Shown here piece after piece: positions 1-64,000 of a stretch of 64,000 nt of DNA; position 1 is the first letter of the stretch; each line of letters starts with the position of its first letter. The stretch is from NCBI GenBank assembly GCA_965112155.1, contig OZ218099.1. One strand, written 5' to 3'. This stretch comes from Podarcis liolepis (taxonomy: Eukaryota). The notes beneath the pieces were generated by a model that did not search any database, was not told where the DNA came from, and was given only the letters and a program-made list of their open reading frames with translations. The position numbers were made by a program, and so were the translations under genes.

Positions 1-650
1 CCACTGGAGCTCTAAATCACATTTTGACTAATAAGCTCCCTGACAAGTTGCTAACACCAACAGAAGATAAATGACATTTTAAGCAGTAACTTTTCCTTGG
101 TGATCTGAGCATGACTTTGTTTTATGAGTGGTGAAGCATTCTTGTGTTTGTTACATCCTTTGTATTCCTGTCTGCCATGTAACTAAAAGTTATTAAGCCA
201 ATGTTGATGCCACTGAATACATTTTTAAATTTAAAAAAATGAATTATATCCTTTAGAAAAAAATATTATAAGGTGGTTTACAATAATATGTAAATTAAAC
301 AAATTTCTGATGATTATGGCTTATCAGTGGCACACCCTGCCCAACCTTTTTCCATCACTTGTAAACTTATCTTTCCCTTCATTCCTCTAAACAGAGCCCT
401 GTAGTAGAAGAGACCTTCAGGTACACAAAAACACTAAAAAATTTAGTCCAGTATGTTTTGAACAGAAGTCTTTCTCAAAGGCACTCTTGAACAACCAGTT
501 TCAATCTGGTGTCTGCATACTGTTGATAAAATTTTAGGTTTTCCTTCCCTCTTTATCCCTAGACTGGCACCCTGTCCATTACACTGTACTAACTAATGTA
601 CTACTCAAAATTCTGTTGCTGAATATAACATTTTATTTTATTCTTTTCAG

Positions 651-721
651 GAATTAAATACTATCTACTACTATCTTCATGGAATGGACATACTGTCTCA
701 TCTCAGGGAGCATCAGTTAAG
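651..721 (+). CDS. RAPGEF6: RAPGEF6 exon 2 (71 nt, ELNTIYYYLHGMDILSHLREHQLR)
   Basis: ttttcag| acceptor and |gtaaga donor; matches recalled human RAPGEF6 DLNTIYSYLHGMEILSNLREHQLR; phase 0 to 2. Confidence 0.95.
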
Positions 722-1193
722 GTAAGAGCAGCTGGGCTAATGCAAAAGTGATTTTGGCTGTGCTGGTGAGAGCATTCTTTGCATTCAGGCTTGCAATACT
801 TGACTGTTTTGAGGTAAGATTAATCTTTCTGATTTTGTAAGTAAGAAAGCATGTATGCTCTGTTTTCTGCATGGAACCTTTTGTATGATGCATTATGAAA
901 TATAGTCTGACATGTTGTTAAAGTAAAAGACTACAAATCGTAATGTGAAAATGATAATCACAATTTGTCCAGGGGTTCTAAATATTGTATTCATTCTTGG
1001 GGGATCTGGGTTTAAATCTCAGCACACCGAATTCTCTTAGCTTTAATTCCTCAATGATAAAGCAGGAATATTAATTTATTACCTTCTTGAGCACTGGTAT
1101 TGCATAGAGGAGAACTGTATACAATTAATAGTGCACAATTATCCAAAATATGATAAGCATGCTTCATAATGATACTGAATTTCTTTTTCTCAG

Positions 1194-1250
1194 AATTATG
1201 ACTTCCAGTGCACGTTACAAAAGGTACGATGGAAATCAAGTTTTGTTTTG
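1194..1250 (+). CDS. RAPGEF6: RAPGEF6 exon 3 (57 nt, IMTSSARYKRYDGNQVLFC)
   Basis: ttctcag| and |gtaagt; similar to human LMSARARYERYSGNQVLFC; phase 2 to 2. Confidence 0.93.
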
Positions 1251-1882
1251 GTAAGTGCACTTCACCATTACCTAAACTGAAAATTTAATACATCTAGGGC
1301 AGTTCAACATTTATTTAATTTCCTTAACACAGCTCATAAAACACATTCTTGTGCAATAGTCCCATATTTTTGCTGTGTACTCTATATGGTTTTGGCGTAA
1401 GTCATATGAAAACATTTCAGTACATCATATGTGCAGACTTAGGGCATGAGATTTCAAGAGATTGCAATTGGCTCGATGGAGCCCTGTCTTTTCCTCTCCA
1501 TTTATCTCTGATCATGGATGTGTACACAGACAAAGCCATTAAAGGAAAAAGGAGGTGTGAGAGCACCTTGTGTTTCCACTCCACTCCTTTCTGCTTCATG
1601 CTTAGATAAAAGCAAGGTTGGTAGAAAGCTGTCTAGGGCTATGCTTCCTAGTAACACATACTTGCTAATAACACATATGTTCCCTTCTGCTGCTGGTGGT
1701 GGGGGGTGGGGGTGGGATGTGGTAGGGAAAAACAGGAGTGTACTGAGATTATGGAATTCTTCACACAGATGCTGTGCCTTCAGTCGACTGGACCATGTCC
1801 TATTTGATAGTCATTTAGTAAATTATAAATAGTAATACTCAACATTTATGTAGCACTTTCAAGTTTACATATAGAGTGGTAC

Positions 1883-2128
1883 AGTTGGCCTTGGTGAAGA
1901 TTTGATGTTTTCATCCCCCAAAAGTTTTTGAGTTGAGTTTCCACTGAAATGAGGCTGCATTTTAATGTTGTACTTTAATCTTGTTTCTAAGTTGTATTTT
2001 AATCAATTGTTTTTATACTTTTTGTTAGCCTCCCTGAGCCCGGTCTTGGCTGGGGAGGGCAGGGTATAAATAAAAATTATTATTATTATTATTATTATTA
2101 CTACTACTACTACTACTATTACTATTAT
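1883..2128 (+). mobile_element. 3' end of an L2-like LINE with (TTA/CTA)n tail
   Basis: gttagcctccctgagccc...ggggagggcagggtataaataaaa followed by a microsatellite tail. Confidence 0.6.
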
Positions 2129-2348
2129 TACCTCAGGTTACAGACACTTCAGGTTACAAACTCTGCTAACCCAGAAATTGTACCTTGAGTTAAGAACTTT
2201 GCTTCAGGATGAGAACAGAAATCGTGTGGCAACGGTGTGGCAGCAGCGGGAGGCCCCATTAGCTAAAGTGGTGCTTCAGGTTAAGAACAGTTTCAGGTTA
2301 AGAACGGACCTCCAGAACGAATTGAGTTCTTAACCTGAGGTACCACTG
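2129..2348 (-). mobile_element. Tc1/mariner-type MITE (CAGTGGTACCTC TIR family), left TIR interrupted
   Basis: Right TIR gaggtaccactg followed by TA; body matches copies at 13597, 41194, 45573 and 54253 (strand given relative to the 13597 copy). Confidence 0.85.
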
Positions 2349-2939
2349 TACTTTCAATGCATTATAATCCTTACAGCAAACCTGTAAGCTAAATCAGAAG
2401 TGTTATCCCCCATATTTCAAATTCTGAGGCCTAGAGGCTTAGAGGGAGTGGCTTGTCTAATGCTGCCTATTGATTTAATAGCAGATACAACATCTGAACC
2501 AGACACTTCTGATTCATACTTGGTTTTGTAGCCACTTTGCTACACCACCTTTCTACCCTTTCTTTAAGAGCTGACCGGAAGACCCAACTGTTACCTTAGC
2601 TCTCACCAGAAGGTTCAGAACCAAATCCTTTTTATTTGTATACTGTTTCTTTGGCTCAAGCAAGTTACAAATTCAAAGGAATTACACTACTCTCAAAATT
2701 ATTTACCTTCTGTGACTTGTCCCCAAAAAGAAACTGACACCTTGGGACAGAGCTCCCATGTTTAAAGAGCTTCACCACTTGTTATATATTTGAGAGGCTC
2801 TCCTTTTCATGTTTGAAATTTGCCCTGATAGGGCAGTAAATGGCGAAAGACATGCTTTTAAAGCTTTGATTATATGTTTTAGATATATAGTGCACTTCAC
2901 ACTGATAGGATGTAGCTAATACTTGTTCCTTTTCTTTAG

Positions 2940-3023
2940 CTCAGACACTATTGCAAGATGCTGGTATATTCTTCTTTCTGGATCTGTGCTTATGAAGGAC
3001 TCCATGTTTTTGCCACCTTGCAG
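2940..3023 (+). CDS. RAPGEF6: RAPGEF6 exon 4 (84 nt, SDTIARCWYILLSGSVLMKDSMFLPPCS)
   Basis: tctttag| and |gtatgt; human SETIARCWYILLSGSVLVKGSMVLPPCS. Confidence 0.96.
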
Positions 3024-3670
3024 GTATGTAAGAAGTTAGCATCTTCTTTAGTACAGGGGGGAAACCCATAAAACTGGATGCCTAGTTAAATACATACTTT
3101 ATAACACTAGATTTTCAAGTATGTAGTACCTAATTTTGATAAGCTATATGGTAAATCTTTCATTCTCCTGTTCAGATATTGTTTCTGAACTTGGATAATT
3201 GGCATAAACTCTTCATTTTCCTCCAGTTTCTCTTCCTGCTTGGTCCATCCATCTTTAAATTTTCCCCAAGGATAACTGCCAAGAGTACTCATTGTTAACT
3301 CCTTTTCTGCCTTTAAAGTCAGACATGGGGAGTCTGAATGGGAGCTAGCATTTGTTACCAGCAAGCTCTGTGCATGGCTCCCTGTTTCCTTTGTGTTAAA
3401 GGTAAGCATAAATCCCTTGCATAGTTTGACATGTTAGCCGCCATTCATGCCTTTTTCTCTTGAGCAGTGTGTATGGCACTTACTCTGCCTGAGTAGAAAA
3501 TGTAAAGCAGGGCTCCTAGTTTATAGCCCACCCACCCACCAGTCCTATAATGTCTTAGACAAGATGAATGAATACACATTCAAAATAATTGATTTAGGTT
3601 TCCTTGATAGCATTAATCTTTGGAAGTGATAATTGTGTTTGCTTATGAACATTGAAGTAAATGATTATTA

Positions 3671-4030
3671 AAGGTAAAGGTAAAGGTACCCCTGCCCGTA
3701 CGGGCCAGTCGTGTCCGACTCTGGGGTTGCGCGCCCATCTCGCTTAAGAGCCCGGGGGCAGCGCTGTCCGAAGACACTTCCGGGTCACGTGGCCAGCGTG
3801 ACAAGGTGCATCTGGCGAGCCAGCGCAGCACACGGAAACGCCGTTTACCTTCCCGCTAGTAAGCGGTCCCTATTTATCTACTTGCACCCGGGGGTGCTTT
3901 CGAACTGCTAGGTTGGCAGGCGCTGGGACCGAGCAACGGGAGCACACCCCGCCGCGGGGATTCGAACCGCCAACCTGACGATCGGCAAGTCCTAGGCACT
4001 GAGGTTTTACCCACAGCGCCACCCGCGTCC
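3671..4030 (-). mobile_element. Full-length young Sauria SINE
   Basis: (ACCTTT)n tail, tRNA-derived head with B box, CpG-rich, perfect 13-bp TSD taaatgattatta (3658-3670 and 4031-4043). Confidence 0.95.
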
Positions 4031-4379
4031 TAAATGATTATTAGCTTCTGCCTATTAGGGAATATGAATTTATCTTGCCTATATAGCATGAATTGCACCA
4101 CATTTTTTATCCTTTATCACAAGGCAGATAGTAGTAGAGCTGTTCTGATGCAGTAGCACCCAGGCTGGGTTGAACTGTCCACAAGAGTTTTTCAGGTAGC
4201 TGCTTTTTGTAGCAATTAAATTATTGCATAAAAATTCATTGAGTCAGCAAACCAGATTGCATCATCTTAAAATTCTAAATAGAGTGAACAAAAACACAGT
4301 ATAGCATGTGCCTCAAACTGGGTTATACCTCCCAGCTGCCTTTTTGCTCCCCAGCTGTTCTAGATGGGGCATTACAAAA

Positions 4380-5010
4380 AGAGGTGCCCCTTCAGCTAAC
4401 AGTTTCTCAAGCTCTTTAAGGCTTTATATTAAACTAACACCTTGAAATTTGGCTCAGTGATGTACTGACAGATCTTTAAAAGCTAGTGGCACATGATTGT
4501 GTGCACAAAAGCCTATCGACACTCTGGTTGCTGCATTTTGTCCCTGGTGCACTTTTTGAACAGTCTTCAAGAGCAGACCCAGGCAGAGTGAATTGCAGTA
4601 GTCTAGCCATGAGATTATTAGAGCACGGATAACCATGACTTGGCTTGGTCCAGGAATGGTGGTAGATAGCAAACCATCTGTTGCTGAAAAAAGGCTCTCC
4701 ACATCATCCATGCCACTTTGGCCTTAAGTGACAGAATACCACATTCTGTATACTTTGACCCACTGTCTCTCAGAAACTAGCCCTGTAGATAGGAGTGAAA
4801 CCACCAAAATCACGCCCTCAACTCCTAAACCACAGGGCCTGCCCATATCATGGCTGATGAAATGAAAAGCTGCCAAGGAAGCAAGGAGAAGCAAAAGGGT
4901 TGCACATAGGTAAATGAAAGCAATTACAGTACTAAAATAAGGCCTGAAGCCCAATTGAAACGGGTCAAGATAATCAGCTTCCACCAAGCACTCTTAATTG
5001 CATGGCCACC
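4380..5010 (-). mobile_element. Degraded L2-clade LINE ORF2 fragment
   Basis: Minus-strand remnants LDPFQxGFRP and LDYCNSL..GL...QNAAxR; boundaries approximate. Confidence 0.75.
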
Positions 5011-5266
5011 ACTCTCTGTAATTATTCTCTGTAATAATTATTCTCTGTGAGGGTTCTCTTACTGGCCAGTCTTCTGGGTCCAGCATGTCCTTCAATGTAG
5101 CTGATACCACTTCCTCCCACAGTGAAGAATTAACTCTCCTTGGACTCACCCAGCCAGTCTTCTGCTAGATGCACAAACCAAGAAGGGCAAGGGGTTGAGA
5201 TCACAGGTGAACGCTTTCAGGCATTTTGTCTACATTTTGGTGCCTCTGCTCACCCAAAAGAGGCCA

Positions 5267-5345
5267 GATAAGAACATAAGAACAGTCTGCTGGATCAGGC
5301 CAGTGGCTCATCCAGTTCAGCATCCTGTTCTCACAGTGGCCAACC
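5267..5345 (-). mobile_element. CR1-type 3' end fragment
   Basis: ataagaacataagaa...ctgctggatcaggcc...catcctgttctcacagtggcca; related to 21290-21437, 35780-36245 and 43075-43340. Confidence 0.65.
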
Positions 5346-6598
5346 CTCCAGACTGAGCAGGATTCAATGCAGCATTCAGAGCTGCGGTTGGAAAGGAAAA
5401 TGAGAAAAACTCACTGTACCGTAAGTTATTTCCAGTTTTATATAGGGCTCTTTGGATCCTGGCATTTGCTTCTGTAGCAGATAATAGATATTGCTGCTCC
5501 TAGACCTAGAGTGAAACTTGCCTTACATTTAATGGGTGACTGTACTGAGGAAGGTTATTCTTTGAAGAAACCCAATAAAGATACCTAACAGATGGTTCTT
5601 GGAATTGCGGTGTGAAAAGGAAGTGGGTCGGTTCATTTTCAACCAGACTGTACTTGAACATAATAGTTTTAAGGAGCTATCGTGGCAAGGGCAGCACTGT
5701 ATACTTGAGCAAAGGTTGTTCATTGATACCTAAAATTCTTAGTATCCTGGATTTGTTGAATTTGTTCTGTGGTGTTTGTATTGTTCTTTCTTTTGACACA
5801 TCTATCTGAACATAAAATAAGTGTGTTCATACAAACCTAGCTTGTGGTGGAATAGTGTTTACTTTTAACACTTCAGTATACTGTGTGGCAAGCATTGAAG
5901 AATTTATTCATAGTATGTTCATGTAAGCACGTTTTCTACTTTATTATGCTAAATAGCCAACACTACTAAATGAGATGCTGCTGTTGCCATTTGTTGCCAG
6001 CATGACAGCTTCACCCATAATTGTGGGAGCATTTCAGATATATCCTATGTATTCTTTTCTGCACTAGTTCTTTTCCTGTAAAGGAGTTGCATAAGTATCT
6101 TCCCACTTTATCTGGAAGCTTTTAGTGAAGCATAATTTCCCCCCACGTGTGTAGGTGTTCACTTTCAGGCAAATGTACCTTAGAGCCTGGATTTTTGCTA
6201 AAGTGGAGGATACCCATTTTCTTGTGTTCTTTTCTTTAATAGCACTTTCCCCCATTTCATTTTGAACATTGTTTACAGACTTTCTAGTTCTGTAAATAAT
6301 GTGATGCTTTTATCTCACTGATTGCCACTAAATGTGGAGAAATAAAAGTTTTTATATTTCACTCCAGGGACACCGCATGTGAAGTATGCCGCTAACCTAT
6401 TGATTACGTGGTTCTGATATCCCTTTATAATTCCACTATCACTATAAAACTTAAATAAAACTTTTCTCTTGGTGTTCTAGTATAGTAGCAGGGCAGGATA
6501 TTGGGCTTCAGGCATTGGATAAACAGGCAGATCCATATTTAAAAGATAAAAAACAAATGTATTAATATTAGATTCGATATATGGCTATGTTCCAACAG

Positions 6599-6733
6599 TT
6601 ACATTAAATGTGTACTGTAACTTTAAGGATGTTAGGTCCATAACTAAGGCTGCAGTCCAAAACCTTTACATTAAATGTGTACTGTAACTTTAAGGATGTT
6701 AGGTCCATAACTAAGGCTGCAGTCCAAAACCTT
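6599..6733. repeat. Perfect 2 x 67-bp tandem duplication
   Basis: acattaaatgtgtactg...gtccaaaacctt starts at 6601 and again at 6668. Confidence 0.95.
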
Positions 6734-9005
6734 GGCCAGCAATGATGGCATTTGCAGCAAACAGGGTGTGGGGTGCAGAGGAAAAAAATTGGTCTTTGCT
6801 GTAGGCAGGGATAGAGTTCTCTGCAATATTCACTGGACAGCTTAGAAAATTTCAGACAGGTTTAGTCCAGTGCCATAGCATGGGGGGCTTGGGGAGCCAT
6901 GGCCCATGGCATGTATTTTTGAGGGGGTGTGATCAGGTGCCCCCACAATGGGCTCACTCATCAGAGCCTGGTCCTGGCGTACAAGAGAGCTGCAGGGACA
7001 ATTTCCTCATGCAACAGTCCAACGCCACCAGCTGCAGCTCCACTCCCAGGTCAAGCCTGACCCAGGGGCAGAGAGAGGCTGCGGAGCACGAGGCACCTGG
7101 CTGTGGCAGGCCCCATCCTTCTCGAGGGTGTGCCCCATGCACCCGCCTTGGGCACCGTTAGCTTACTCCCTGCCACCGGTTCAGACTCGAGGAAGGCTTG
7201 GCAATTCCCTAAGGAGGATTTGGAGCACCTTTCCTCCCCAATGCTGTCCCTAGCTATTTTAGTTAAGGTCACTCGTAAGTGGTGCAACAACCTCCTCCAG
7301 TGGATCAGAGCCTACCCCCGAGTTGGGAGCTCTGTTATTTGATCCTCGGATCTGCACTTTTTTAACCAGGATAAAATAGTGCTTAGAACTGATGCATCAT
7401 TCTTGCTCAAGGTAAACTTGGTTTTTTGCAAAAGGAGGTATGTGTGCACAAATGGAGGGCACTCCATATTTTTATTTGGATAGGGTTGTGTCTGTAAGGA
7501 ATTTGGATGCCTGCTTTATATGATTTTGGGAGAAGATCTTTAGTGAGAAGGTGACAGCATCCACACTGTCTTAGTGGCTGAGGAGGTATGTAGTTCTTGT
7601 GTATCAGTCTCTTGAAAATCTCCTTGGGCCCATTTGGGGGTAGCATTGGTTTTTATATACAAAGGTCTTGGAATGTTCTCTGGGAGACACAGGAAAAAGG
7701 GATGTTCCAATCGGCAGGCGTGAAAAAGCCATTGCACACAGTTGCTTTTCAACTTCAATTTCTCTCTGTCTTATAATGAGTTTCCTTATTGGTCCAAAAA
7801 TTCTGAGGTAGTAATTCTTTCCATGTGTGTTTGTTCTTCAAATAGAACAGAGATGCTTGGTTTTTTTTCTTGTGAATCTCTCAGTAGTAAATTAAATATT
7901 TAGTATTTCATATTTACTATAAATAGTCACGTCTTCTTCTTCTTCTTTTTTTACACACCCAGCCACCTCACAAATGGTAATTGTTGAAATGAGGGAGCAA
8001 GGAATTATTTGTTGGAAATGTCTGGTTTGCTTGAAGAGTGTGTTTTCATTTTTTGAGGAAAGTTATGATATCTAATGTATATCTTGTGGATTTCACATTT
8101 TCATATGGGAATGCAGGCATTAGTCTGGGAGTTAGGAAATCATATGCAGGAATGCTTCCTTGTGGCATTCACAGTCCTACTGAAAATACTGCACCCAGCA
8201 GAATCACATTCATAAGGGAAAGCTGAATGTGGGAAAATGTAGGATTAGCAGTCTGAGACCTGCCAAAGGTGCTTATCAGTTTTATTTCCCAATCCATTAA
8301 TCAGCTAAGTTAGAATGCTGTGTTCTGAATTTATTTGCGTATTCCAGTTTATACGGTTTGTGAAATTGGCTGGGAATCGTTTCTATTGTATATTGTTTTA
8401 CTATTGGAGTAGCAGATTATAAATGAAAAATGATGTGGTTTTATTAAATTATGTGGTTCAGAAGGACTTCCTGATCGTTTTCTATTGTAGCTTGGCATTT
8501 TTTTTAAAAAAAAACCTTGAGTTTTGTAATTCTGGCATGAGTACTTGTATTCTGGGATATACAAATATAGAAGGAATAGCTGTTGCATAACAATGCATGG
8601 CAGGAACTGGAGTTTTAGTGAGAAGATGAATGTAATCTGAGTAATAAACATTTTGTGAATTCCTTCTCAGTGATTTAACTGCATGTAGTGGATTCAATTG
8701 TTCTCTGGTGCTTTTTGGTGCTTTTTTCTTGTTTTTATCTGTTATTTAAAGCAAATTTAATGTTGTTTAATTGAAATAAATTACAGCTTTTATTATTTTG
8801 TTCCAGGCAACCGCTAAGTCAAAAGATAAAACTGTAGTTGTTAATAGAATTGCTGAGCATTACTCTGTGCTCGTAGCTTAGAAGTCCACAGAACTCCCAA
8901 CCTGCTGTTTGAGACATTCTAAGTTCACAAAGATTGTGATGAAGCACATACCAGTTTTTCCCTTTAAAAATGAGTCCTATAGACAAAAGTTTCTTTTTAT
9001 ATACT

Positions 9006-9218
9006 TACAGATAGGTAGCCGTGTTGGTCTGCCATAGTCAAAATAAAAAAATTCCTTCCAGTAGCACCTTAAAGACCAACTAAGTTAGTTCTTGGTATGA
9101 GCTTTTGTGTGCATGCACACTTCTTCAGATACACAGAATATCTGAATATCTGAATATCTGTGTATCTGAAGAAGTGTGCATGCACACAAAAGCTCATACC
9201 AAGAACTAACTTTTTTAA
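9006..9218. mobile_element. Penelope-like element remnant with inverted pseudo-LTR segment
   Basis: Same sequence as the start of the 36710 copy; 12-bp TSD tttttatatact (8994-9005 and 9219-9230); 56-bp perfect inverted repeat 9082-9137 / 9157-9212. Confidence 0.8.
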
Positions 9219-10863
9219 TTTTTATATACTGTACTGGTTTGAATTGTCCGGCCATGCCATTGGATTCAGGTATCTTGTAGTATTTTAAGAGTCCAATATA
9301 ATCCTTCTGTGCTGGTTGTGACAAGAAATATGCTTTTGAAAACCAATCTTGTCAAAAGAACTGGAGTGCCTCTGTTAATATTATTTATACTGTATAGGAA
9401 CAACAAAAAATCGATTGGCTCTCTAAGTCAAAATAAACAAAATTAAAAACATACAAACAACAAAAACTGCCATAAGATGAAATGCATCATTAAAACAGAA
9501 TAATATAATATCAGGAATGAACAGAGAATCTAAAATTAAGAATTGGTGAAACTAAAGCAGTTATGTTTAGCAATATTTTAAAGGCTGCTTCAGACTGTTC
9601 AGTCTCTGTAGAGCCTCACCACATGTTTGATGCTCCACACTCAACTTGTAGTTGCTTGACTTCATGGAGGCTCACTGAGAGTGGAGTGCTTCAGCTAAGT
9701 TCCTTCCCTTGCCTCTTTTACCCTGTCATTGAGATACATTGTCATTTTTTGCCACCATTTACCACACTTCCTAAGACTACGTTCCTGTGAAAGGTAGTTC
9801 AGGCACAGAAAGCTGCCTTATATAGTGAAGACAGATGTAAATAATTCATTTTCTGCAATCTCGCTTTGACTTCCTTGCCATCCAGTGGTCCTGTTGACTC
9901 TCTTAGTTGATTTCCCAAACCTAAATCTACATGGAAATGTAGGATGTGATCTACTAAGTGCTGATTTTATGGAACTTCCTTATGGGCATTACTTGTAGAT
10001 CTCCTATATTTGTCACTTATGTGAAGCCTAAGCCTTTTGAAGGGGTAAATAATGGAATATGGAGGCTTTTGTCTTTTGCTTCTTGTGGGAACAGTAAAAT
10101 GTTTGCGCTATAGATAGATACTGCAGTTTTTCTTCAAGGTCATAAAAATTATAATAACTCTCAGGTATGAAACCTTTTCTGCAATCTAATAATGAAAGGC
10201 CTAAAAAAAGAGAGATTTCTTAAGATCTATGTAGCACCACAGAGACTGGGGATAAGAAACAGATTTCCTCAAGCACAAGAAAAGGAACTTTTAAGTTGGC
10301 AGGGCATGGAGGGCAGCAGGGAAAGAAAAAATGTTTAAGCTTAACAAATACATCCTGCTTAGTGTGTCAGCATGCATGCAATATTTTTTCTTCCACATAC
10401 ATATGCGTGAGCATTTCTCTTGAAGTAGAAGAAAGGTTAAAGCGTCAGGGGAACAGAGCACAATAATGCACTGAAGCAAGAGCATGTACTAATTGAAAAA
10501 GGTTCTATGATAATAGAAAGCTTTGCTCATGTTAGTATAGTAACTTTTTGATGCCTTAGCAGATTGCTCCCAATGATCATTTTTTTAATTGCAAACACCA
10601 GACTGAGCTGTAATATTCAAACAAGAAGGCACTGATTTTTTTTGAAGGTTGAAGTTGTACAGTAGAGCTGAGGATGCTATCTCTGGGTCAGTATTGTCTA
10701 CACTGACTGACAGGGACCTTCAGTGGGTTCAGTTGAGGTTTTTGTCATCCATACTGCAGTTAGATGATTGTTGGAGTATTTCCAATGAAATTAATGGACT
10801 CAAGTTACTTGTCCACTGATGTCATTGGGTCTACTCAGAGTATGACTATCATTGAACATTCTA

Positions 10864-11142
10864 CAGTGGTGCCTCGCAAGATGAAATTAATCCGTTCCGT
10901 GAGTCTCTTCGTCTTGCGGTTTTTTCGTCTTGCGAAGCACGGCTATTAGCGGCTTAGTGGCTATTAGCGGCTTAGTGGCTTTAAGAAAAAGGAAACAAAC
11001 TCACAAGAACTCGCAAGACGTTTCGTCTTGCGAAGCAAGCCCATAGGGAAATTCGTCTTGTGGAACGACTCAAAAAACGGAAAACTCTTTCGTTTTGAGC
11101 GTTTTTTGTCTTGCGAGGCATTCGTCTAGCGAGGTACCGCTG
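10864..11142. mobile_element. Tc1/mariner-type MITE (second family)
   Basis: TA|cagtggtgcctcgc ... gcgaggtaccgctg|TA; CpG-rich; internal 18-bp tandem repeat. Confidence 0.85.
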
Positions 11143-11339
11143 TATATGTACCAGCCCTCGTTGCAACACTTTTAATGCAAACCCCTCACAAGTAGATGAT
11201 AAAATGTTTTAATAACCGTTAATGTCATATATATTACTATTTCTGATAATTTCAGAAAATATGCTTCTAGAATATATATCCTATTATTTGATTCATTAAA
11301 TCTGTACATCATCCAATTTGAAACATATTTCTTGTTTAG

Positions 11340-11590
11340 TCCAGTATGAGACAAAACTTTAACAAGGCTGCCTTTTCAGTGGTAGCCCCTGAGCTATGGC
11401 ACACCCCCCCCCCACAATATTATATAGGTTTTAACAGCAAGTCAAGACTCTTTGCACTAGTTTTTGGTGAGATGGGGCATTTTTACTTATCCCACTTGTT
11501 GCTGCTTATGTGGGCTGCTGCTTTGCTATATTTTACTGTGGTTTTTAAGTATTGCATTTTATATACTGCAAAATTTTTGCAAACCTGAAT
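11340..11590 (+). mobile_element. Old L2 3' fragment
   Basis: AFSVVAPELWH motif of the L2 ORF2 C-terminus. Confidence 0.55.
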
Positions 11591-13218
11591 TGTTCAGTAG
11601 AAGCTTGTTAATGGAAGGTTTGTAATACATGTTTCGTTAGAAGTAAGTTTCAGAGTTCAGAGTAGCTTGATCCCAAGAATTGCCAGGTGGGGGATGCTGA
11701 ACTTTTTCCATTCCTGCCTGCTCCGTTCTGTAGCCCTTGCCTTGGCAACAAGAGTAGTGTATGGTACAGTATAACCTGGGTACTGCCTACTTGCCTCTGT
11801 AATGCACATCCTTGCCACCCAAGCTGGTTTTCTACTTCTATCTCCTAGCCAGACGCCAACAGGAGAAGAAATCTGGAAAAACAGGGTGGAGTTATCCTTC
11901 TGCAGAGATTAATTTGTGTTTGTAAAAAGGATTAAGTACACTACTGCTCCTGCATATGAGTAATCCAGAAGGCATTGAGTTTTGCTAGTATAAAATGTAG
12001 TTCTGTGTCCTGTCACCATTTCAACTTTTGGAGATCCCCACTCTGACCCGCTTATTTCAATATAAATCTCACTTCCTGTGCTTTGTTACAAAGAGGTGCA
12101 TTTAGTCATATTTATAAGTTTCGTACAGTTAACACATTTGAGGGTTCTGTGATAGATTATTAAAAAGAGATTTGACAGTTCTAATTACGATGCTCTTGCC
12201 TCCTACTGATCATGATCATAATTCTTTATCACTATGACTCTTAGTATTAAAACTTATCATTTTGAAAGAACTGAGGCATTCTTAGAATAACTTCAGGAAA
12301 CATCTGTTCTTGATGAATCACATCTGTATTTTCTGGCAATTTTTTTAAATAAAAAATTATTCTGGAGTTTAAACTGTTCCCCTGCATGAAGACTTGATCA
12401 CACCCATTTTCATACTATCTGAGTATATATGTTGTGTGTTGGCTACACAACACTATTTTAAAGAAAAAAGGCCTGAATAAGAGATCTTAGTTGAACTTGA
12501 AATATTTAGGAACTAATAAGATTTTCTTAATAACTCACAAAGTTCTGTAATACGCATAATAATCAAACAATTATGCATTCTCACTACCCTGATATTGAAA
12601 CGTCAAATGATTAATTGGGTATTTTCAATTAAATAAATAATGAAAATTTCAAGAAAAGGAAGGGAATTACAGCAAACAAAATATTTAAATCTTCGCTGTT
12701 TAACTTAGGTCTTTGACGCTTACCTGGTTTCCTTGTGCTGTATTTCACACATTTTTGGAGATGTGGTTAAATTTTTGCTCTCAAATTCATCATCAACAAG
12801 GAGACCAAATCTAGTTCCATGTGATTCAAGCGATCACACAGAGCAAGCTGTTGATTGTGGTATTTTGATTACTGTAGATGAAAGCCAGTTTGACAAATCC
12901 ATGCAAATAATTACTTGTGTTTTATGAGAAGAAAATAAACACTGTATCAGCAGGGATCATAAAGAGAAACATAATATGCCAGGAAACCTTCACACATTCA
13001 AATGTAGCTTTAAGTCTTTCACACCTCCCTCAGCTGGGGGATAATTTACAAAATTTCCTAAGGACACTTCTGTTTTTTCTGTCCAACTAGAGAATTTCCC
13101 CTTTCTCTAAGATGTTCTGCTGTGTTTAGTACTGACCACAGTGCTTATCATACCATATAGGCAGTTATTCCAGTTCTTTGGCTCCTTGCATGCACTGAAG
13201 CTGTACTCCATAAACAGC

Positions 13219-13261
<43 letters not shown>
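13219..13261. repeat. (GTT)n microsatellite
   Basis: about 14 units. Confidence 0.95.
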
Positions 13262-13596
13262 CACAGTCGTGTCGTGTCTTGTGTGGGTGTTAGGTTCTAT
13301 TGGTGGTGATGATGGGGAGCGGTTACTGCATAAAGCCAAAATTGTGTCAAAAACCACTCCAAGGAACAGCTACTGTGCGAACAATCTTACTTTTTGGCAC
13401 AAGAGTTTCCCAGAACAGTAAGCAAGGCAGAGAGCTAAAAAGTGTTTTCCGTTGCAGGAAAACCTGGTGTGCAAAGAACTGTTTAGCTCTCTGCCTTGCA
13501 TTTGTGTGATATCAGCTGGTTTGCCACCAAGCGCAGAAAGTTGTGACCCTACAAGTTAAATGCGCAGCAGCTGCGATCCTACTGTGTTTCCATGTA

Positions 13597-13837
13597 CAGT
13601 GGTACCTCGGGTTAAGTACTTAATTTGTTCCGGAGGTCCGTTCTTAACCTGAGACTGTTCTTAACCCAAAGCACCACTTTAGCTAATGGGGCCCCCTCTG
13701 CTGCTGCGCTGCCGGAGTATGATTTCTGTTCTCATCCTGAAGCAAAGTTCTTAACCCGAGGTACTATTTCTGGGTTAGCGGAGTCTGTAACCTGAAGCGT
13801 ATGTAACCTGAAGTATATGTAACCTGAGGTACCATTG
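13597..13837 (+). mobile_element. Tc1/mariner-type MITE (CAGTGGTACCTC family)
   Basis: TA|cagtggtacctc ... gaggtaccattg|TA. Confidence 0.9.
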
Positions 13838-14515
13838 TATGGACCACTTGATAGCTTTAGCTCTTGAAGTGGGTTACAGTAGCTACACTTGCATAATACA
13901 TACCCACAATAAGAGCAATAAAAACAATGTAAAATTATTTACATTAAAAATACATGAACAGTATCCATAATAACCATATCAGGAAAGTCGCAAAGCATTA
14001 CAAGGCAGAAAAATGTAGACTCCCTAACCAACATAAAACACACTGTTCATGTAGCCACTCATCCAACCACACTCTCACTATCTGTTCCCATAACCACTAT
14101 GATCATTCACTCCTTCATATGGTACCTCTAGCAAGCAGCCACTCATGGGCAAACCACTCACTCTCAACATAATTACAACCCACATACCAAGGATTGCTGC
14201 CATATAAGAGTGTCTTTCCATCACTGAAGAACTAATGGACTTATGCCCCACAGGATCATCAATACTCTTCTCACATCTTTCACTTGGGAGTGGCTCAGTT
14301 CTATGCCACAACAATCTCTGATGGTTGAACAAGCTGCATAATGTGATGGTGCATCAAAAACACATATTGCCCCTTTAATAGGCATGTGAAATACAATCAA
14401 AGGTACTGTTTCACAGTGTGCTGTTACTAGTATTCCTATAATTCATCCCTACTCTGTTTGATTTTGTGGTTTACTATTAATGTGTAATAATACTTTCCTT
14501 CTTTTTTCTTCTCAG

Positions 14516-14585
14516 CTTTGGCAAGCAGTCTGGAGGAAAACGAGGTTGCGAGTGTATTGTATTGGAGCCTTCTGAAATGATTGTG
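14516..14585 (+). CDS. RAPGEF6: RAPGEF6 exon 5 (70 nt, FGKQSGGKRGCECIVLEPSEMIV)
   Basis: long pyrimidine tract ending ctcag|, donor |gtaagg; human FGKQFGGKRGCDCLVLEPSEMIV; phase 2 to 0. Confidence 0.96.
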
Positions 14586-15194
14586 GTAAGGATAGACTTT
14601 TAAAAACCAGTGTGCATAGTCCCCCTTGAAATAGTCATGTTCACTTTGGCTGCAGTTCTAGAGAATTCTATCACAAATCTTACCATGGCTACCATCAATG
14701 AGTGGTGTGCTAGTGCATATTGCTGAAGCACTCCTGTCTTGCTCTGCATTTTCCAGAAACAGGAGCAACAAACCCGGAAACAGGAGCAACAAACCCATGA
14801 GTCTTGACTTACTCTGTGGGGTGTTCCTCTCCTGACTATGGTAATAAACCAAGGTTTGTTCTTGGCTTACTGGGGGCAGCTTGTTTGGCAGAAACAAACT
14901 AGGAGTGCTAGTTTGTTGCTGCCAGCACCAAGAAGGAGAAAGTGAAATGGGGGTAATTTAATAGTGTGCACTTAGCACACTGCTAATTCATGGTAACCCA
15001 AGATTTATGGCTTACTGTGACGTATGATCTGAGTGACTGTTATCTTCTTAATGAATGCTTCCCTATCATTATGGATACCATGCTCAATATGTCTCAGCTA
15101 AACTGTTTGTGTGTTTGCTGCAATATGGCACTACTGGCCCACAATCCTGTTATGTTCTACAGGTATTCTGATATCTTTTCTCTTTTCTCTAAAC

Positions 15195-20288: not shown

Positions 20289-20432
20289 GTGGATAACTTG
20301 AAAGAGAATGAAGACAACATCCTGCAAAGGGAAGTGCCCCTCCGACAATCTCGACGGAGGTTTAGGAAGATTAACCAGAGGGGAGAACGTCAGACCATCA
20401 CAGATAACGTGGATGTTAGCAGCTATCTTTCG
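20289..20432 (+). CDS. RAPGEF6: RAPGEF6 exon 6 (144 nt, VDNLKENEDNILQREVPLRQSRRRFRKINQRGERQTITDNVDVSSYLS)
   Basis: ttccag| and |gtgagt; RQSRRRFRKIN motif; C-terminal end (SYLS) is RAPGEF6-like rather than RAPGEF2-like. Confidence 0.96.
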
Positions 20433-26951: not shown

Positions 26952-27107
26952 NNNNNNNNNNNNNNNNNNNNNNNNNNNNNNNNNNNNNNNNNNNNNNNNN
27001 NNNNNNNNNNNNNNNNNNNNNNNNNNNNNNNNNNNNNNNNNNNNNNNNNNNNNNNNNNNNNNNNNNNNNNNNNNNNNNNNNNNNNNNNNNNNNNNNNNNN
27101 NNNNNNN
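26952..27107. other. Assembly gap (156 N)
   Basis: run of N. Confidence 1.
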
Positions 27108-27446
27108 GAATAGCTTGCCTCGAATAAACACATCTCAGTTTAACTAGCAGAGATGTAAATGGACCTTTTGCCCACACATGTGAGCTGTTATTAAAGCAGG
27201 AAATATCTAATAAACTATAGTGTTCTGTTTCATCCAAACTGGGAATCCATGGCTATTGGCAATGGAAAAAGTCAGAATCTTAAACCATCTTCAAACTGTA
27301 GCTTAAGATCCTGACTTGTATGCAACCTGGTAATCATAGTTTTCTGGTACTGATGAAATGGAAAACTATGATTAATTGGAGACTGTCTGGTTTAATCACT
27401 GCTTGTATGAAGGGAAAAGTGAAGGCACTGCTTATGCAAGAAATAT

Positions 27447-27757
27447 TTGTTGTTGTTGTTTAGTTGTTTAGTCGTGTCCGACTCTTCGTGACCCCATGGG
27501 CCAGAGCACGCCAGGCACTCCTGTCTTCCACAGCCTTCCGCAGTTTGGTCAAACTCATGCTGGTAGCTTCAAGAACATTGTCCAACCATCTCGTCCTCTG
27601 TTGTCCCCTTCTCCTTGTGCCCTCCATCTTTCCCAACATCAGGGTCTTTTCCAGGGAGTCTTCTCTTCTCAAGAGGTGGCCAAAGTATTGGAGCCTCAGC
27701 TTCACGATCTGTCCTTCCAGTGAGCACTCAGGGCTGATTTCCTTCAGAATGGATAGG
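27447..27757 (-). mobile_element. 5'-truncated BovB (RTE) LINE
   Basis: ILKEISPECSLEG..KLRLQYFGHL.RR.DSLEKTLMLGK.EG.RRRG; (CAA)n tail; 13-bp TSD with 2 mismatches (atgcaagaaatat 27434-27446, atgcaggaaacat 27758-27770). Confidence 0.93.
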
Positions 27758-32329: not shown

Positions 32330-33347
32330 CAGTAGCCAATTGATCTAATGCAGTTTCTAAAGGCTTTCTATACAGGTGATGTCATCCTTTTAGCTCCATT
32401 CCCCTCCCACTCTCTCCCCTCCTTATTAGATATTTCATCTTGCTGCGGAGCATCCAATCGATGAGAGCTTCTCCTGAGGGAGCTGCTGAGAAACGAGCAA
32501 AGATAGTAGGAATTAGGACTCGAGCGTTCAGTCTTGCTGTGGATGTTGCCTTTTGCAATGTATTAGAAATGTTTTAATTGGTAAATGCTGGGTTTGGATT
32601 AACCATGTATCTGGCTGTGCATTAGAATTCTAAGCTATACTGCAGCATTTTTAAACTCTGCATTGGAGGGGGTTGGGAGGGAAATGGCTTTGATCGCAGA
32701 GGCTTTGAGCAATTCTGTAGTGCAAACCTGTTAAGAGTACTGTGTATATTTATATATCTTGAAGATACTAGCTGAGAATGGATTTACTCTTGTCATGGTG
32801 GGCAAGAGTATAAAGAAGGAACTTTAATATGAAGGATTCCACAGTCATCCAAGATCTGCTTTAACAAGAATCTTTGCAAAACTATACCTGCATTATAAAA
32901 TGTGAAGATGAGGAAATGGGACTCTGAAGACTAACCAGCTTTAACCTGTGCCTTGCAATGGGAAAATACTTAAAAGGAATTCAGCTTTCAGCTTTCCAGA
33001 GACTGTTGCATTTAACTTGTAAACCTTTCTAGAATTTATTCTAGCTGTTTCAGGTATATTTCCTGCCTGGGGAAATCTATTGACCTTTGTATTTGAATAA
33101 GAAGCAGCACTGAAAATTTTGAATGTGCAGTTATGTACTTGTCAAAATTGGACTGTTTTTGCAGTAATTTTTGCAACACTGAAAGCCACTGAGATACAGT
33201 AGGAATTTAATTTTTAATTAATCACTGTGAAATTAAAGTCTACTTGATTTTGTGCCTGAAAATCCATTTCTTTGGCTTATGGTTTCTAAACTTCTAAGGA
33301 TCTTAATTTCTTGTTGGTGAGTGGAAACTTTCCCTTCAACCCAGGAA
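32330..33347 (+). promoter_or_regulatory. Putative internal promoter / long 5' UTR of the short isoform
   Basis: About 1 kb with no recognisable repeat upstream of ATG 33348; CCAAT at 32336, CRE-like TGATGTCA at 32377-32384, C-rich tract, a few retained CpGs; TSS not determinable. Confidence 0.4.
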
Positions 33348-33401
33348 ATGGCTTTTCTTGTTCGTTGTTACGCCAACTGCCTGCAGCCTTGGGCCTCTAA
33401 A
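33348..33401 (+). CDS. RAPGEF6: Putative alternative N-terminal coding exon (MAFLVRCYANCLQPWASK), phase 0 to exon 7
   Basis: ATG in good context (gaaATGg), 18 codons, donor AAA|gtaagt in phase with exon 7 (LPADLTK); resembles an alternative N-terminus I recall for the paralog RAPGEF2 (MAFLVRCYANCLQPWSSK-LPADF), not verified. Confidence 0.8.
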
Positions 33402-35044
33402 GTAAGTAAGAATTCATATGTAGGTTTTTCTCAAGCTGAACATAATTTGAAAATAGCTATTACTTAAGAACTTCTTAAAGTTTAAACATACAATCAGTTT
33501 GTTTTCTAGTTTTGAAACTCTAATACTCTTGTGGTAATCTTAGGATGCTTCAGTTTGGTGTAAGATAAATCTTTAAATCTAACAGGATATATATTAATGC
33601 TTGAGCTCTTTGGCCTCCTTAACAGTCACCTAAATTCGCAGAAAGCTGTGGTTATGGTTTCTTCATTTTGCTTGTAATTAGGAAATGATCGTGTCTTCAA
33701 AGTAACACCATTATGTATGTGAAGATAGTCAGTTTGCAATACAACTGTTTATGGCTGTATTTCTCGCAACATATATGACATTGCAAGAGGAAGCAATTAT
33801 CTTTAAAGCTACATATTTTGGATATCCTTACTCTTGCTTTTTAAACAAAAGTTATACCTCCATGAAAGTTCACTGCTTCTGCACAACAGCAAACTTTAGT
33901 GTCCTAGAAGCTATTTTCTGGTTGTTAAGGCTGAAGTGAAGTAATTGACTTGTGGGTGGAAAGTTCATAGAGCTCCTGAACTTGAAAGTTCTTCTAGTAT
34001 TCTCCCTCTTAATATTATTATGATAATGGAACATAGTAATAATAAATATGTACAGTACACAAAATTTGTTGATGTTTTGAAAATGAAGAACTAAAAATCA
34101 ACTAAAAATTGTGTCACCCCCATTTGTCTCTACAATTTCAACGTGCAGTGTGCTAGGAATAGGTAGCATCCCTCTTTGATATTGTTCTTAGTAAGGATTT
34201 AAGATAGCAAATGTTTGTTTAAAAGTTGGTGGCTGTTTCATGTGACCAGCAGCTTTTATATTCAGTGCATCTTTATTTATCTCTTCATCGTTTTGAGGTC
34301 AAATTTTCGAACCTATTTTTCTTACCAGCCCTGCAAATAAGTGATTTGAAAAGGTGAATATCCACTTTGGTCTTGTATTGTTGTCAGGCTGGAGGCTCTG
34401 TTCTTAGAATTCTTCTGTATCCATCTTCTGTTTCCTGTCTTTCCCCCTACCCTGAATAACTATCACAACACTGTATTTCTTCAGCTAGGAAAGGCAGCTG
34501 TGCTGTGGCAGTGCCCAATATCAGCCTACATGCTCAGGTGTGCACCATCCCCACCCCCAATATGGGACTGAAAAAGGAGAGAAGACATACAGCCAGCATA
34601 GTGAAATTGACACCCATGACGGGAACTAGTTTCTTTTCTAATATGCTTGCTTAGGAAAACATTTCTGCCCCTGCTCTTTGTTTCCTGGGATTCAAAGTTC
34701 AGTGACCCTGTGACACTAGAAGACTTGAGTGCTGCTTTCTTAGCACTATGTGTTTTCTAGCTCAGAGAAGTAATGTAGCATACTAAATCCTGACAAGATG
34801 GAGTCTCTGTGGTTAGGTGGCTATTATGGTGGAGAAGTGGGGATATGACCAGCTCTGGATAGGGTTGTACTGTTTCCGAAGGATCTTGTGGGTGTTTGTT
34901 GATCCATCATTGCCCTGGAGGCCTAGATGGCTGAAGTGGCTAAGTTTCAGGTCCAGCAGATTTGCAAGCTATGGCTTTACCTGGAGTGATCAGTGACTGA
35001 TTTGGGACAACGTTTAAAAAGAGTGTTTCTTTTCACTGGGTATG

Positions 35045-53983: not shown

Positions 53984-54115
53984 CTTCCTGCAGACCTGAC
54001 CAAGATGCATCTCACAGATGGTCAACATCCACAGGTGACACATGTCCCTTCAAGTCAGTCTGGTTGCAGCATTGCTAGTGATTCTGGGAGTAGCAGTTTA
54101 TCTGACATCTACCAA
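53984..54115 (+). CDS. RAPGEF6: RAPGEF6 exon 7 (132 nt, [44 protein letters not shown])
   Basis: cttccag| and |gtaagt; [10 protein letters not shown] and GCSIASD match RAPGEF6 (RAPGEF2 has LPADFTKLHL and GCSITSD); includes the DSGxxS degron-like motif. Confidence 0.97.
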
Positions 54116-60284: not shown

Positions 60285-60465
60285 GCTACCGAAAGTGAGA
60301 TGGGAGATGTAGATCTAACTGGTCTCCCAGAAGCACCAGTTGATTCTGAAGACGATGAAGAAGAAGATGAAGACATTGACAGAACTTCAGATCCACTGCT
60401 GGGGAGAGATGTTGTACGGGAATGCCTTGAAAAGGAACCGGCTGACAAAACAGATGATGACATTG
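60285..60465 (+). CDS. RAPGEF6: RAPGEF6 exon 8 (181 nt, [60 protein letters not shown])
   Basis: gtacag| and |gtgaga; acidic stretch and [14 protein letters not shown] as in human RAPGEF6; phase 0 to 1. Confidence 0.97.
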
Positions 60466-60847
60466 GTGAGATGTAAAAAGAAAGAAAGTACTTCTACATA
60501 GTTTCAACAGATTATCCCTAATAATCTAGTAATTTGAAAGTTAATGACAAACTGATATAGTAGCGTATTTTACAGACACATGCCAATCCTTATGTAGCCA
60601 AAGTGGCACCATTGACGTATATGAGAGAGATAGTAGCAGGCTTGGGAGAACCCTAAGGTTTGCAGAGGTACATTTCAAAACAAAACAAAAGAATGACCCC
60701 CTCCCACAAAAGAGCCCCAGCCGTTTTGGTTGACATTTGGAGAGGGAGAGAATGGAACTGAGAATCCTTGAAGAGAGCGTGTCTGTCTGGCTAAAACTCT
60801 GAACTGAAGCAGTTCACAATGCAACATTTTGTTGCAGGTCTCACTTA

Positions 60848-61333
60848 CCGTATTTTTCGCCTCATAGGATGCACCGGCCCATAGGACGCACCTAGTTTTT
60901 TCAGGGGGAAATAAAAACTTTTTTATTTCCTCCCCAGGTGCGGGGCTGGGGCGGGGGAAGCCCGAGCTTCCCCCGACCCCAGCCCCCAGAACAGGCTGCT
61001 ATCCGCAAGCCATGGGAGAGCTGCGTGACTTCGCGCGGCTCTCCCACGGCTAGCGGAGCGCTGTGCGAAGCCCGAAGCTTGGGGCGTGCTGAGCTCAGCA
61101 CGCCCCAAGCTTCTGGGTGCAGGCAAGCTCTCCGCTAGCCGTCGGAGAGCTGCGTCTCCCACGGCTAGCGGATAGCTTCCTGAAGCCTGGAGAGCGAGAG
61201 GGGTCGGTGCGCACTGACCCCCCTCGCTCTCCAGGCTTCAGCGAAAGCCTGCATTCGCCCCATAGGACGCACACAACATTTCCCCTTCATTTTTGGAGGG
61301 GGGAAAGTGCGTCCTATAGGAAGAAAAATGCAG
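60848..61333. mobile_element. Young CpG-rich pogo/Tc2-like MITE with internal palindromes
   Basis: TA|ccgtatttttcgc ... gaaaaatgcag|TA; subterminal cataggacgcac repeats. Confidence 0.85.
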
Positions 61334-61940
61334 TATCTATTTACACACATTCCCTTTGTCTTTATCTATAGCTAACCTCATATATCGCATAAAATATATA
61401 GATTGTGTGTGAATGTATAGGCAGGGGAAGCAACCACCCACTAAATGTTATCAATTCCTATGCATATAGGACCCAAGCATCTTGCTGCACTTCCAAGTGT
61501 GCAGATTGGGCCATTCTAACACTGGACTGGTATTTCTTACTTTCCTCCTTGTGTACTATTAACATGGGGTTGGATCCAAATAACTATGAGTAATAGAACA
61601 ATAGTTGCTGGCATAGTTTTGCAAAGTCTTTCACAAGAGTTTGCATAATGCTAAAATAGCTCTATAGCAGTTCTCATGCTTCTTCTTTCATAATAAGTTT
61701 CACTTTTTCTCATTCAAAAGTCCCATTTTTGAGTAGAAGATGCCTTTGCATGCTGAAGGTCCTCTTTGATTCCAACTCATTGTAACCATTCTTATTAACT
61801 AACATAAATTGATGCGTGACACAAATACAGATTGAAATCCATTTTTGATATATTAAATACTACCAACCTGCATGGTAGTGAAACCTAAGTAAATGTTGCC
61901 TTGCTTTGTTTCTAACATATATTTATTTTTGTTCTTATAG

Positions 61941-62077
61941 AACAATTACTGGAATTCATGCACCAGCTTCCAGCATTTGCAAACATGACTATGTCTGTAA
62001 GGAGAGAACTCTGCTCAGTGATGATATTTGAAGTTGTAGAACAAGCAGGAGCCATCATTCTTAATGATGGGCAAGAA
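61941..62077 (+). CDS. RAPGEF6: RAPGEF6 exon 9 (137 nt, [45 protein letters not shown]), cNMP-binding-like domain
   Basis: cttatag| and |gtaagt; near-identical to the recalled human sequence. Confidence 0.97.
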
Positions 62078-62852
62078 GTAAGTACTGAATAATGCATGCC
62101 GTGATCATGTTGCTATGTGATCATCAAACACCTATAATATATATATTTTTACCATGCAGATAAGGGTGAAATGTTTTCAGTTTTACAGCATATGTAGCAG
62201 TGCATAACTCCCCAGTGTCAGTGCATATTATCAAAAGCTCCAAAAACATTTCACAGGGGTTTTTTATGACCTACTGCTAGCTTATTTCAAATGTCAAACC
62301 ATGTTTCTATCCCTTAGATATAGGCCTGGTTTGTACAACATGGTAACACAAACTATGGCTTAGTGAAACTTTGCAAACGTGGGCTCCCAGAGAGGTGATT
62401 GCAGCTGTTTTGTTCCTCCCTGGACTTTTTTATTCCTGGATCACAATGATTTGGATCTGGGCTCATGGTTAAGTTTTTTTCTCACTGGCCATGAGTTTGT
62501 AACTAAGATGTGCCATGCGAACCAAGCCATAGTTTCTCAAATGCACCTGATGAATGTTTTGAACTCAAGCAACAATACCACATCCTGAATCTTGCATTAG
62601 AATGACAATCCTAATTAAGGATTTCTGTCCGAATATCTCATTCATCTCTGTGTTTCTTCCTGATCTGGTCATGGAAGATGGGTACCGGTTGTTAACATTA
62701 CTACTAAATTAATCATTTTTATTGTTACCCCAATGGTTATATTGCTGTTGCAGAGGCATACTAAGCATCCAGTGAGCCTTCTGTTTAGCTTATTGTTGAT
62801 ACAGTTGGATGCTTAAGATAATTGAAATGCTTTTATTGGGTTTTCTTTCTAG

Positions 62853-63011
62853 CTTGATTCTTGGTATGTTATTTTAAATGGCACTGTGGAAATCAGCCAT
62901 CGAGATGGGAAAACGGAAAGTCTCTGTATGGGAAATAGTTTTGGAATTACTCCCTCTCTGGAAAAGCAATATATGAATGGTGTAGTTCGGACCAAAGTAG
63001 ATGACTGCCAG
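62853..63011 (+). CDS. RAPGEF6: RAPGEF6 exon 10 (159 nt, [53 protein letters not shown])
   Basis: tttctag| and |gtaaga; core of the cNMP-binding-like domain. Confidence 0.97.
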
Positions 63012-63451
63012 GTAAGATAACTTCATAGTAAAACATTCTTCCATTTTCTCATTAAAAATTCTATTTAATTAATCATCCCAGAAATAAAATAGTGCAATTT
63101 TGGCTAATGGTAACCACTTACAGCTTTCTTGCTCACAGCATAGGTTATTCAGCAAACAAGAACTACTGCTTTCCCTGCTTATATATCAAAGTCTGCCGAA
63201 ACGGGCTCAGGACAATTTTACTTTTTGAATTCAAGTTCTCATCTAGACTTCTTATCTATATGTATCAGTTGTAGTAATCTCTGAAGGTATTACAAAAATA
63301 AATAAATTATGAGGTTGAACAAGATGGAAACAGATTGATTTCTAATTACATTTTGCCATGATTATGTTATATGTGTCTAGGCTTGACTGATGCATTTAAA
63401 AAACAACAACTGTTTGCTTGTGTATTTATACCCCTCTGTTATTTTGGATAG

Positions 63452-63604
63452 TTTGTATGTATAGCCCAGCAGGATTATTGGAGAATTCTGAACCATGTTG
63501 AAAAAAATACACACAAGGTTGAAGAAGAAGGAGAAATTGTTATGGTGAAAGAGCACAGAGAGCTGGACCGCAGTGGAACCAGGAAAGGACACATTGTCAT
63601 TAAG
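63452..63604 (+). CDS. RAPGEF6: RAPGEF6 exon 11 (153 nt, [51 protein letters not shown])
   Basis: ggatag| and |gtgatc; [15 protein letters not shown] is RAPGEF6-type (RAPGEF2 has DYCRILNQVEKNMQK). Confidence 0.97.
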
Positions 63605-63964
63605 GTGATCAAAAACATAATCTTACAAAGAAGTTGTTTTATTATATAGCATTTTTCAGTTTCATAACAAAGTGATCTAGTTTCTCATCTTCATCGAAGT
63701 TCTCTTGTTATGCAGTCAAATGGCTATATATTGTGGAAATAATATGCCTCTGGGCAATTAGACATCACTCAACAATATAGTCTTTACAGACATAGATCCA
63801 AGTTGTAATGCTGTATTGGTATGCAGGAAGTATTATGAAAATAAATGTGTGTCTAGGATGAAAGTTAGGAATTGGATTTATGAGTATGTCTGGGTGGTGA
63901 TATTACAAAATGGTATGTTGTTTTTGTGGAATTATTTTATTAACTGCCATCTCTTGTTTTTAAG

Positions 63965-64000
63965 GCAACACCTGAACGCCTGATTACACATTTAATAGAA
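63965..64000 (+). CDS. RAPGEF6: RAPGEF6 exon 12, 5' part (ATPERLITHLIE), start of REM domain, cut by window end
   Basis: ttttaag| acceptor; human ATPERLIMHLIE. Confidence 0.93.

Follow-up and report, generated by a model that had tools for sequence, protein, structure and literature searches.

A conserved alternative first exon of RAPGEF6 in Podarcis liolepis and its predicted membrane-steering leader

Judged by its relatives in the protein databases, an 18-codon reading frame in intron 6 of RAPGEF6 in Podarcis liolepis is a true, ancient and already catalogued alternative first exon of this gene. In the explanation that we favor, an internal and probably neuronal promoter would transcribe this leader exon, which would then be spliced to exon 7. 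The resulting protein (the MAF form) would have its first 165 residues exchanged for an 18-residue leader, and the leader would form an amphipathic helix, be S-acylated at C7/C11 and steer the Rap-GEF to membranes. Taken as a whole, from ancient first exon through internal, probably neuronal promoter to S-acylated membrane-steering leader, we regard this account as evenly poised between right and wrong, with its individual steps differing in how well they can be argued.

The leader exon and its host gene

The window, by which we mean the whole 64,000-nucleotide stretch of contig OZ218099.1, contains RAPGEF6 exons 2-12 in order on the + strand. Exon numbering was derived from tblastn searches with tortoise and tuatara proteins, and exon 1 lies 5′ of the window. 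In the same searches exons 7-11 are 87-100% identical to tortoise RAPGEF6 versus 65-89% to frog RAPGEF2, and by this closer match the host gene is RAPGEF6 (PDZ-GEF2) rather than RAPGEF2. Table 1 lists the features discussed below.

Table 1. Coordinates of the leader exon and of the RAPGEF6 exons around it, numbered from the first letter of the window
Feature	Position	Strand	Basis or comment
Exons 2-5	645..14588 (tblastn spans about 645-722, 1189-1248, 2929-3027, 14514-14588)	+	With exons 1 and 6, encode the 165 residues that the leader would replace
Exon 6, which the long isoform uses as its alternative partner 5′ of exon 7; ends in phase 0	20289..20432	+	
In-frame stop 5′ of the leader ATG	33318..33320	+	Window sequence
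CAG GAA ATG G: strong start context (G at -3 and +4); CAG is the proposed cassette acceptor-like site (candidate)	33342..33351	+	Window sequence
Alternative first exon, coding part: 18-residue ‘MAF’ leader with C7 and C11	33348..33401	+	Window reading; leader identical or near-identical in 59 spliced protein records
Splice donor GTAAGT, phase 0	33402..33407	+	Orthologous leaders stop at K18, followed by an LPAD-type exon
Exon 7 (LPAD exon); common acceptor of long and MAF forms; phase-0 start, LPAD...	53984..54115	+	
Exons 8-12, common to both forms: acidic linker, main cNMP-like domain, REM start	60285..64000	+	

Read directly in the window, an acceptor-like sequence ...cccttcaacccag ends at 33344 and is followed by GAA (33345-33347) and the leader ATG. 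The leader ORF reads MAFLVRCYANCLQPWASK and runs into the donor AAA/GTAAGT, 20.6 kb upstream of exon 7. A first-pass annotation of this DNA had described an 18-codon ORF from ATG to a GTAAGT donor in phase with exon 7, and its coordinates all hold. Because of the in-frame stop at 33318-33320, the ATG at 33348 is the first usable one for an unspliced 5′ end. Since exon 6 ends and exon 7 starts in phase 0, a first-exon splice and a 57-nt cassette would both preserve the frame.

The sequence pattern running from ATG to donor is by itself not beyond chance. Intron 6 contains 16 GTRAGT sites and 3 of them have an in-frame upstream ATG; among these three ATG-donor patterns, the leader ATG is the only one with G at both -3 and +4. 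It is therefore conservation of the peptide, and not the ATG-donor pattern, that settles whether the exon is real. The leader could be an intronic ORF that arose by chance, or a relic now dead in the Podarcis lineage, as the ease with which the pattern arises in intron 6 (3/16) would allow. However, tortoise, chicken, frog and mammal all have exactly this peptide, and in the window its ATG, frame, donor and start context are all intact, which leaves that reading hardly credible.

Several minor features surround the exon. ORFs in the other frames and on the minus strand nearby are short. A donor-like TTG/GTGAGT at 33314-33322, 85 nt 5′ of the MAF donor, would if used give a first exon without the leader ATG, and its AG falls after the likely branch point and before the proposed cassette acceptor. 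Seven ATGs opening short frames of 1-24 codons lie ahead of the leader ATG at 32900-33347 and would be relevant only with a far-upstream transcript start. A non-coding RNA at 32600-34000 was considered and rejected, the sole Rfam match being sub-threshold (E 0.59), and RNA structure over 33270-33410 gave no signal (z -0.21). Further away, stop-interrupted minus-strand frames at 27464-27838 and 47250-49100 are retroelement-like and may be of RTE/BovB type. Near 26950-27110 the assembly has a gap of 156 N.

Conservation of the leader and its place in the transcript

The leader matches at 18 of 18 positions in annotated RAPGEF6 isoforms of frogs, tortoise, chicken and mammals, at 17 of 18 in sharks, teleosts and RAPGEF2, and at 15 of 18 in a hagfish (V5M, Q13R, A16S). 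RAPGEF2 of mammals and Xenopus is one residue off the window leader, the mammalian change being A16S; the near-identical RAPGEF2 leader at the same junction that the first-pass annotation had named is thus borne out. These relatives were gathered in steps. With the open frame around the exon as query, 19 proteins were obtained from 20 candidates, comprising 15 spliced proteins with the identical leader at their start and 4 unspliced read-throughs. Residues 1-40 of the tortoise isoform found at least 47 proteins with the leader among the best 120 of 142 matches. Cluster members added sharks and chicken, a third search added lungfish, and a HMMER scan of 1.84 billion representatives added the hagfish protein (Eptatretus), whose Myxine cluster mate also carries the leader. 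Altogether 64 of 375 stored proteins contain it, as 59 spliced records and 5 read-throughs, one of which is the window’s own. The spliced records cover RAPGEF6 of sharks, teleosts, lungfish, frogs, tortoise, birds and mammals, RAPGEF2 of frogs and mammals, and two hagfish genera; they are mostly pipeline models, include no squamate, and in one case (P0006) derive from a sequencing-assembly record rather than an annotated model.

Across the 8 distinct leaders, 13 of 18 positions are invariant, including both cysteines, F3, R6, Y8, N10, P14 and W15. Compared with narwhal RAPGEF2, identity is 94% in the leader, 85% in the GEF domain and 66% over the whole protein. Against hagfish the corresponding values are 83%, 66% and 45%, and just 81 of 1489 18-residue windows match the leader’s value. 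In both the paralogue and the hagfish comparison, the leader is conserved above the catalytic domain and indeed above any folded domain. Carriage of the leader by both paralogues and by cyclostomes would place its origin at or before the vertebrate ancestor. The proposal that the exon predates the RAPGEF2/RAPGEF6 duplication is accordingly upheld and now extends to hagfish, and retention in mammalian RAPGEF6, which had been posed as a question, is seen in mammalian RAPGEF6 records. A leader profile run against 149 other 50%-cluster representatives (including amphioxus and spider, with one isoform per cluster) matched the hagfish protein only, so that absence from invertebrates is weakly indicated at most. 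In a quick tree the hagfish protein groups with RAPGEF6 (SH-aLRT 95) on a long branch, a placement that we do not rely on.

The exon had also been called hidden. It is real, but it is not hidden, as RefSeq/UniRef models of many vertebrates contain the leader. RAPGEF6 short isoforms of Chelonoidis abingdonii (X8, XP_074924233.1), Gallus gallus (X13, XP_040503192.1) and Xenopus tropicalis (X5) have the identical 18-residue leader joined to the LPAD exon, as here, although these annotated isoforms are database models only. By analogy with such relatives, the leader exon very probably splices to exon 7 in Podarcis. Among the open-access papers searched, we found no study of the RAPGEF6 leader or of leader function. 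Other joins appear among shark RAPGEF6 models. P0143 (model X7) skips exon 7 in frame and carries the leader directly before the exon that follows LPAD. In P0055, P0056, P0057, P0148 and P0167 exon 6 is skipped and exon 5 is joined to the LPAD exon, which would mean that exon 7 accepts at least three upstream partners.

Whether 33345-33401 also serves to an appreciable extent as a 57-nt cassette, included between exons 6 and 7, as the first-pass annotation had suggested in calling it a possible hybrid exon, can be judged from the same records. The proposal can draw on the in-frame CAG, whose 11 of 16 pyrimidines equal those of the exon 7 acceptor, and on hybrid exons being common (80,000 in human), with starts frequently located at the 3′ splice site, according to the accessible sections of PMC11797052. 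Yet 166 of 1170 intron YAG sites (14%) match that acceptor score. The leader Met is the record start in 57 of the 59 spliced records, and the remaining two are frog RAPGEF2 models that extend further upstream with sequence unrelated to exon 6. Among 118 proteins containing exon 6 and the LPAD exon, not one has the leader (a count over cluster representatives and 85 listed members only). In six other records that read upstream of the Met, the preceding residues are Q-E in four, frog RAPGEF2 among them, which would suit a cassette, but T-E in two (P0004 and P0005), where T-E-M makes an in-frame AG impossible. Conservation of the GAA is accounted for by the start context. The absence of the leader from exon-6 proteins and the two relatives that lack an in-frame AG count against hybrid use, which we consider very unlikely.

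The leader as a predicted membrane anchor

On a helical wheel, F3, L4, C7, Y8, C11, L12 and W15 fall on one face of the leader and R6, N10 and Q13 on the opposite one. C7 and C11 are 40 degrees apart on the hydrophobic face of the predicted amphipathic helix, and the hydrophobic moment is 0.44-0.61 at 100 degrees versus 0.20-0.46 at 170. The invariant cysteines lie near the N-terminus amid hydrophobic residues, with no signal and no membrane span. The peptide had been described as hydrophobic and basic; with a net charge of +2 and one Arg and one Lys it is only weakly basic. Myristoylation requires Gly at position 2 and was rejected, the leader having Ala there.

Short alternative N-termini of comparable anatomy are known to be palmitoylated. 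In GRIP1b (19 aa), GRIP2b (18 aa), PSD-95-alpha and SAP97-alpha, a Cys-bearing N-terminus of 10-19 residues replaces a longer one in a PDZ protein, as here, and its palmitoylation sets localization, according to the accessible part of PMC6365469. The likeness is one of anatomy; palmitoylation is demonstrated for the GRIP1b-type tips and predicted for the leader of RAPGEF6, which is an enzyme. On the wheel anatomy and these precedents we favor an acylated amphipathic leader, and for helix, acylation and targeting, all of them predictions, we would put the chances at about even.

The sources searched gave no direct evidence of acylation. Rapgef2 is listed in a synaptosome acyl-RAC sheet at the protein level, without site or isoform (PMC9004782 supplement). 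The leader tryptic peptide is absent from the supplements of four brain S-acylation studies, files that are incomplete and whose search databases may lack the MAF isoform; the supplement of PMC5498535 may lack site tables, and those of PMC5468251 have no Rapgef entry. By title and abstract, none of the open-access papers listed has Rapgef2 or Rapgef6 palmitoylation as its subject. Neither hydroxylamine (ratio 0.78) nor DTT (1.38, p 0.52) released Rapgef2 from brain membranes in PMC12874130, where the cysteines given for Rapgef2 are C377 and C1251, both outside the leader. As described in the accessible sections of PMC7325102, RA-GEF-1 is cytoplasmic at rest and its membrane recruitment needs phosphatidic acid. 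Mouse Rapgef2 was cloned there with a primer reading into the MAF leader (by eye, 18 of its 20 bases match the window); this MAF-primer construct was FLAG-tagged, and the imaged construct may differ. Some of these data suggest that the leader is not a constitutive anchor. Acylation would probably act as a regulated second signal beside PDZ and phosphatidic-acid binding.

The leader could instead be an unlipidated helix that docks on a conserved neuronal partner or on the GEF itself, with the cysteines making hydrophobic, redox or metal contacts. The failure of hydroxylamine to release Rapgef2 would agree with this, and phosphatidic acid already accounts for membrane recruitment. The invariant positions, held from hagfish to mammals, and conservation above the GEF domain point the same way: the near-invariance of non-Cys residues suggests more than a lipid anchor alone would need, and hence a protein partner, alone or together with acylation. 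Against docking without lipid, no partner is known, searches of Pfam, PDB sequences and the ESM Atlas with the leader gave no match (a blank that is weak for so short a query), and the spacing and position of the cysteines fit known palmitoylated alternative tips. We consider it somewhat unlikely as the full explanation; docking and acylation are compatible and not exclusive.

Expression, domain loss and disease

Mouse Rapgef2 offers the closest parallel for expression. The accessible text of PMC5611689 distinguishes two clusters among its first exons, one ubiquitous and one neuronal (exon 1′, NCS-Rapgef2), names Rapgef2-MAF in the neuronal one, and reports RT-PCR amplification of Rapgef2-MAF from brain alone among six mouse tissues. 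This is a paralogous first exon, spliced to the LPAD exon as here, but it belongs to the other paralogue, and the text available gives the name ‘MAF’ and expression, not leader function. ‘Rapgef2-MAF’ occurs in one open-access main text among those searched, and the leader peptide words in none. By analogy with the mouse paralogue, whose brain-only data are those of Rapgef2, a neuronal bias of the MAF form in Podarcis is likely. RAPGEF2 differs in having the further leaders MKP and MLP; no MKP-type counterpart was found in the 64-kb RAPGEF6 window, where eight other annotated leaders had no convincing match.

The exchange of N-termini also removes a domain. In the long form of tortoise RAPGEF6, 165 residues come from exons 1-6. 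By Pfam the long form has two cNMP stretches, of which the MAF form keeps one. Searched with a profile of the main domain, whale RAPGEF2 and shark RAPGEF6 score weakly in their N-terminal part (E about 1e-4 among five sequences), and chicken and tortoise barely do, which suggests that the N-terminal cNMP-like domain is degenerate. Analogous to this, use of an internal promoter in Epac2A/Epac2B (RAPGEF4) deprives a Rap-GEF of its first cyclic-nucleotide-binding domain, a weak one. In the accessible sections of PMC3701594, loss of the domain abolishes membrane targeting of Epac2, whereas RAPGEF6 gains a conserved new leader.

The effect of the MAF form could accordingly lie in removal of the N-terminal cNMP-like domain, or in stability or translation from an internal first exon, with the leader serving as a stability or initiation signal rather than in targeting. 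Epac2B, which lacks the first cAMP-binding domain through promoter choice, does shift its localization, as far as the available part of PMC3701594 goes. Rapgef2 protein occurs only in tissues with exon 1′ transcripts, and degradation of the long form or a translational block has been proposed, as given in the accessible portion of PMC5611689. However, the unrelated exon 1′ leaders MKP and MLP would do the same, and a near-invariant peptide in two paralogues would be left unexplained. We judge this reading distinctly unlikely, and retain the acylated leader as the preferred one.

RAPGEF2 and RAPGEF6 are both linked to neuropsychiatric disease. The leader exon is known to databases, and its function appears unstudied despite conservation above the catalytic domain. 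If acylated, the leader would allow isoform-specific placing of Rap signaling in neurons by RAPGEF2 and RAPGEF6. A bolder proposal, in which we place somewhat less than even confidence, is that a leader kept for over 500 million years in both paralogues is a vertebrate-invented reversible S-acylation switch read by a dedicated partner. The neuronal internal promoter would then yield a lipid-targeted Rap-GEF overlooked by standard proteomics databases and spared by truncating variants in RAPGEF6 exons 1-6. A de novo human RAPGEF6 frameshift, p.Pro92Serfs*6, is on record (PMC13260025, whose accessible text does not contain the word ‘isoform’). By homology it maps to exon 4, 5′ of the MAF exon, and the proteins retrieved here include no named human RAPGEF6 record; a form initiated at the MAF leader, should humans make it, would be spared by this frameshift.
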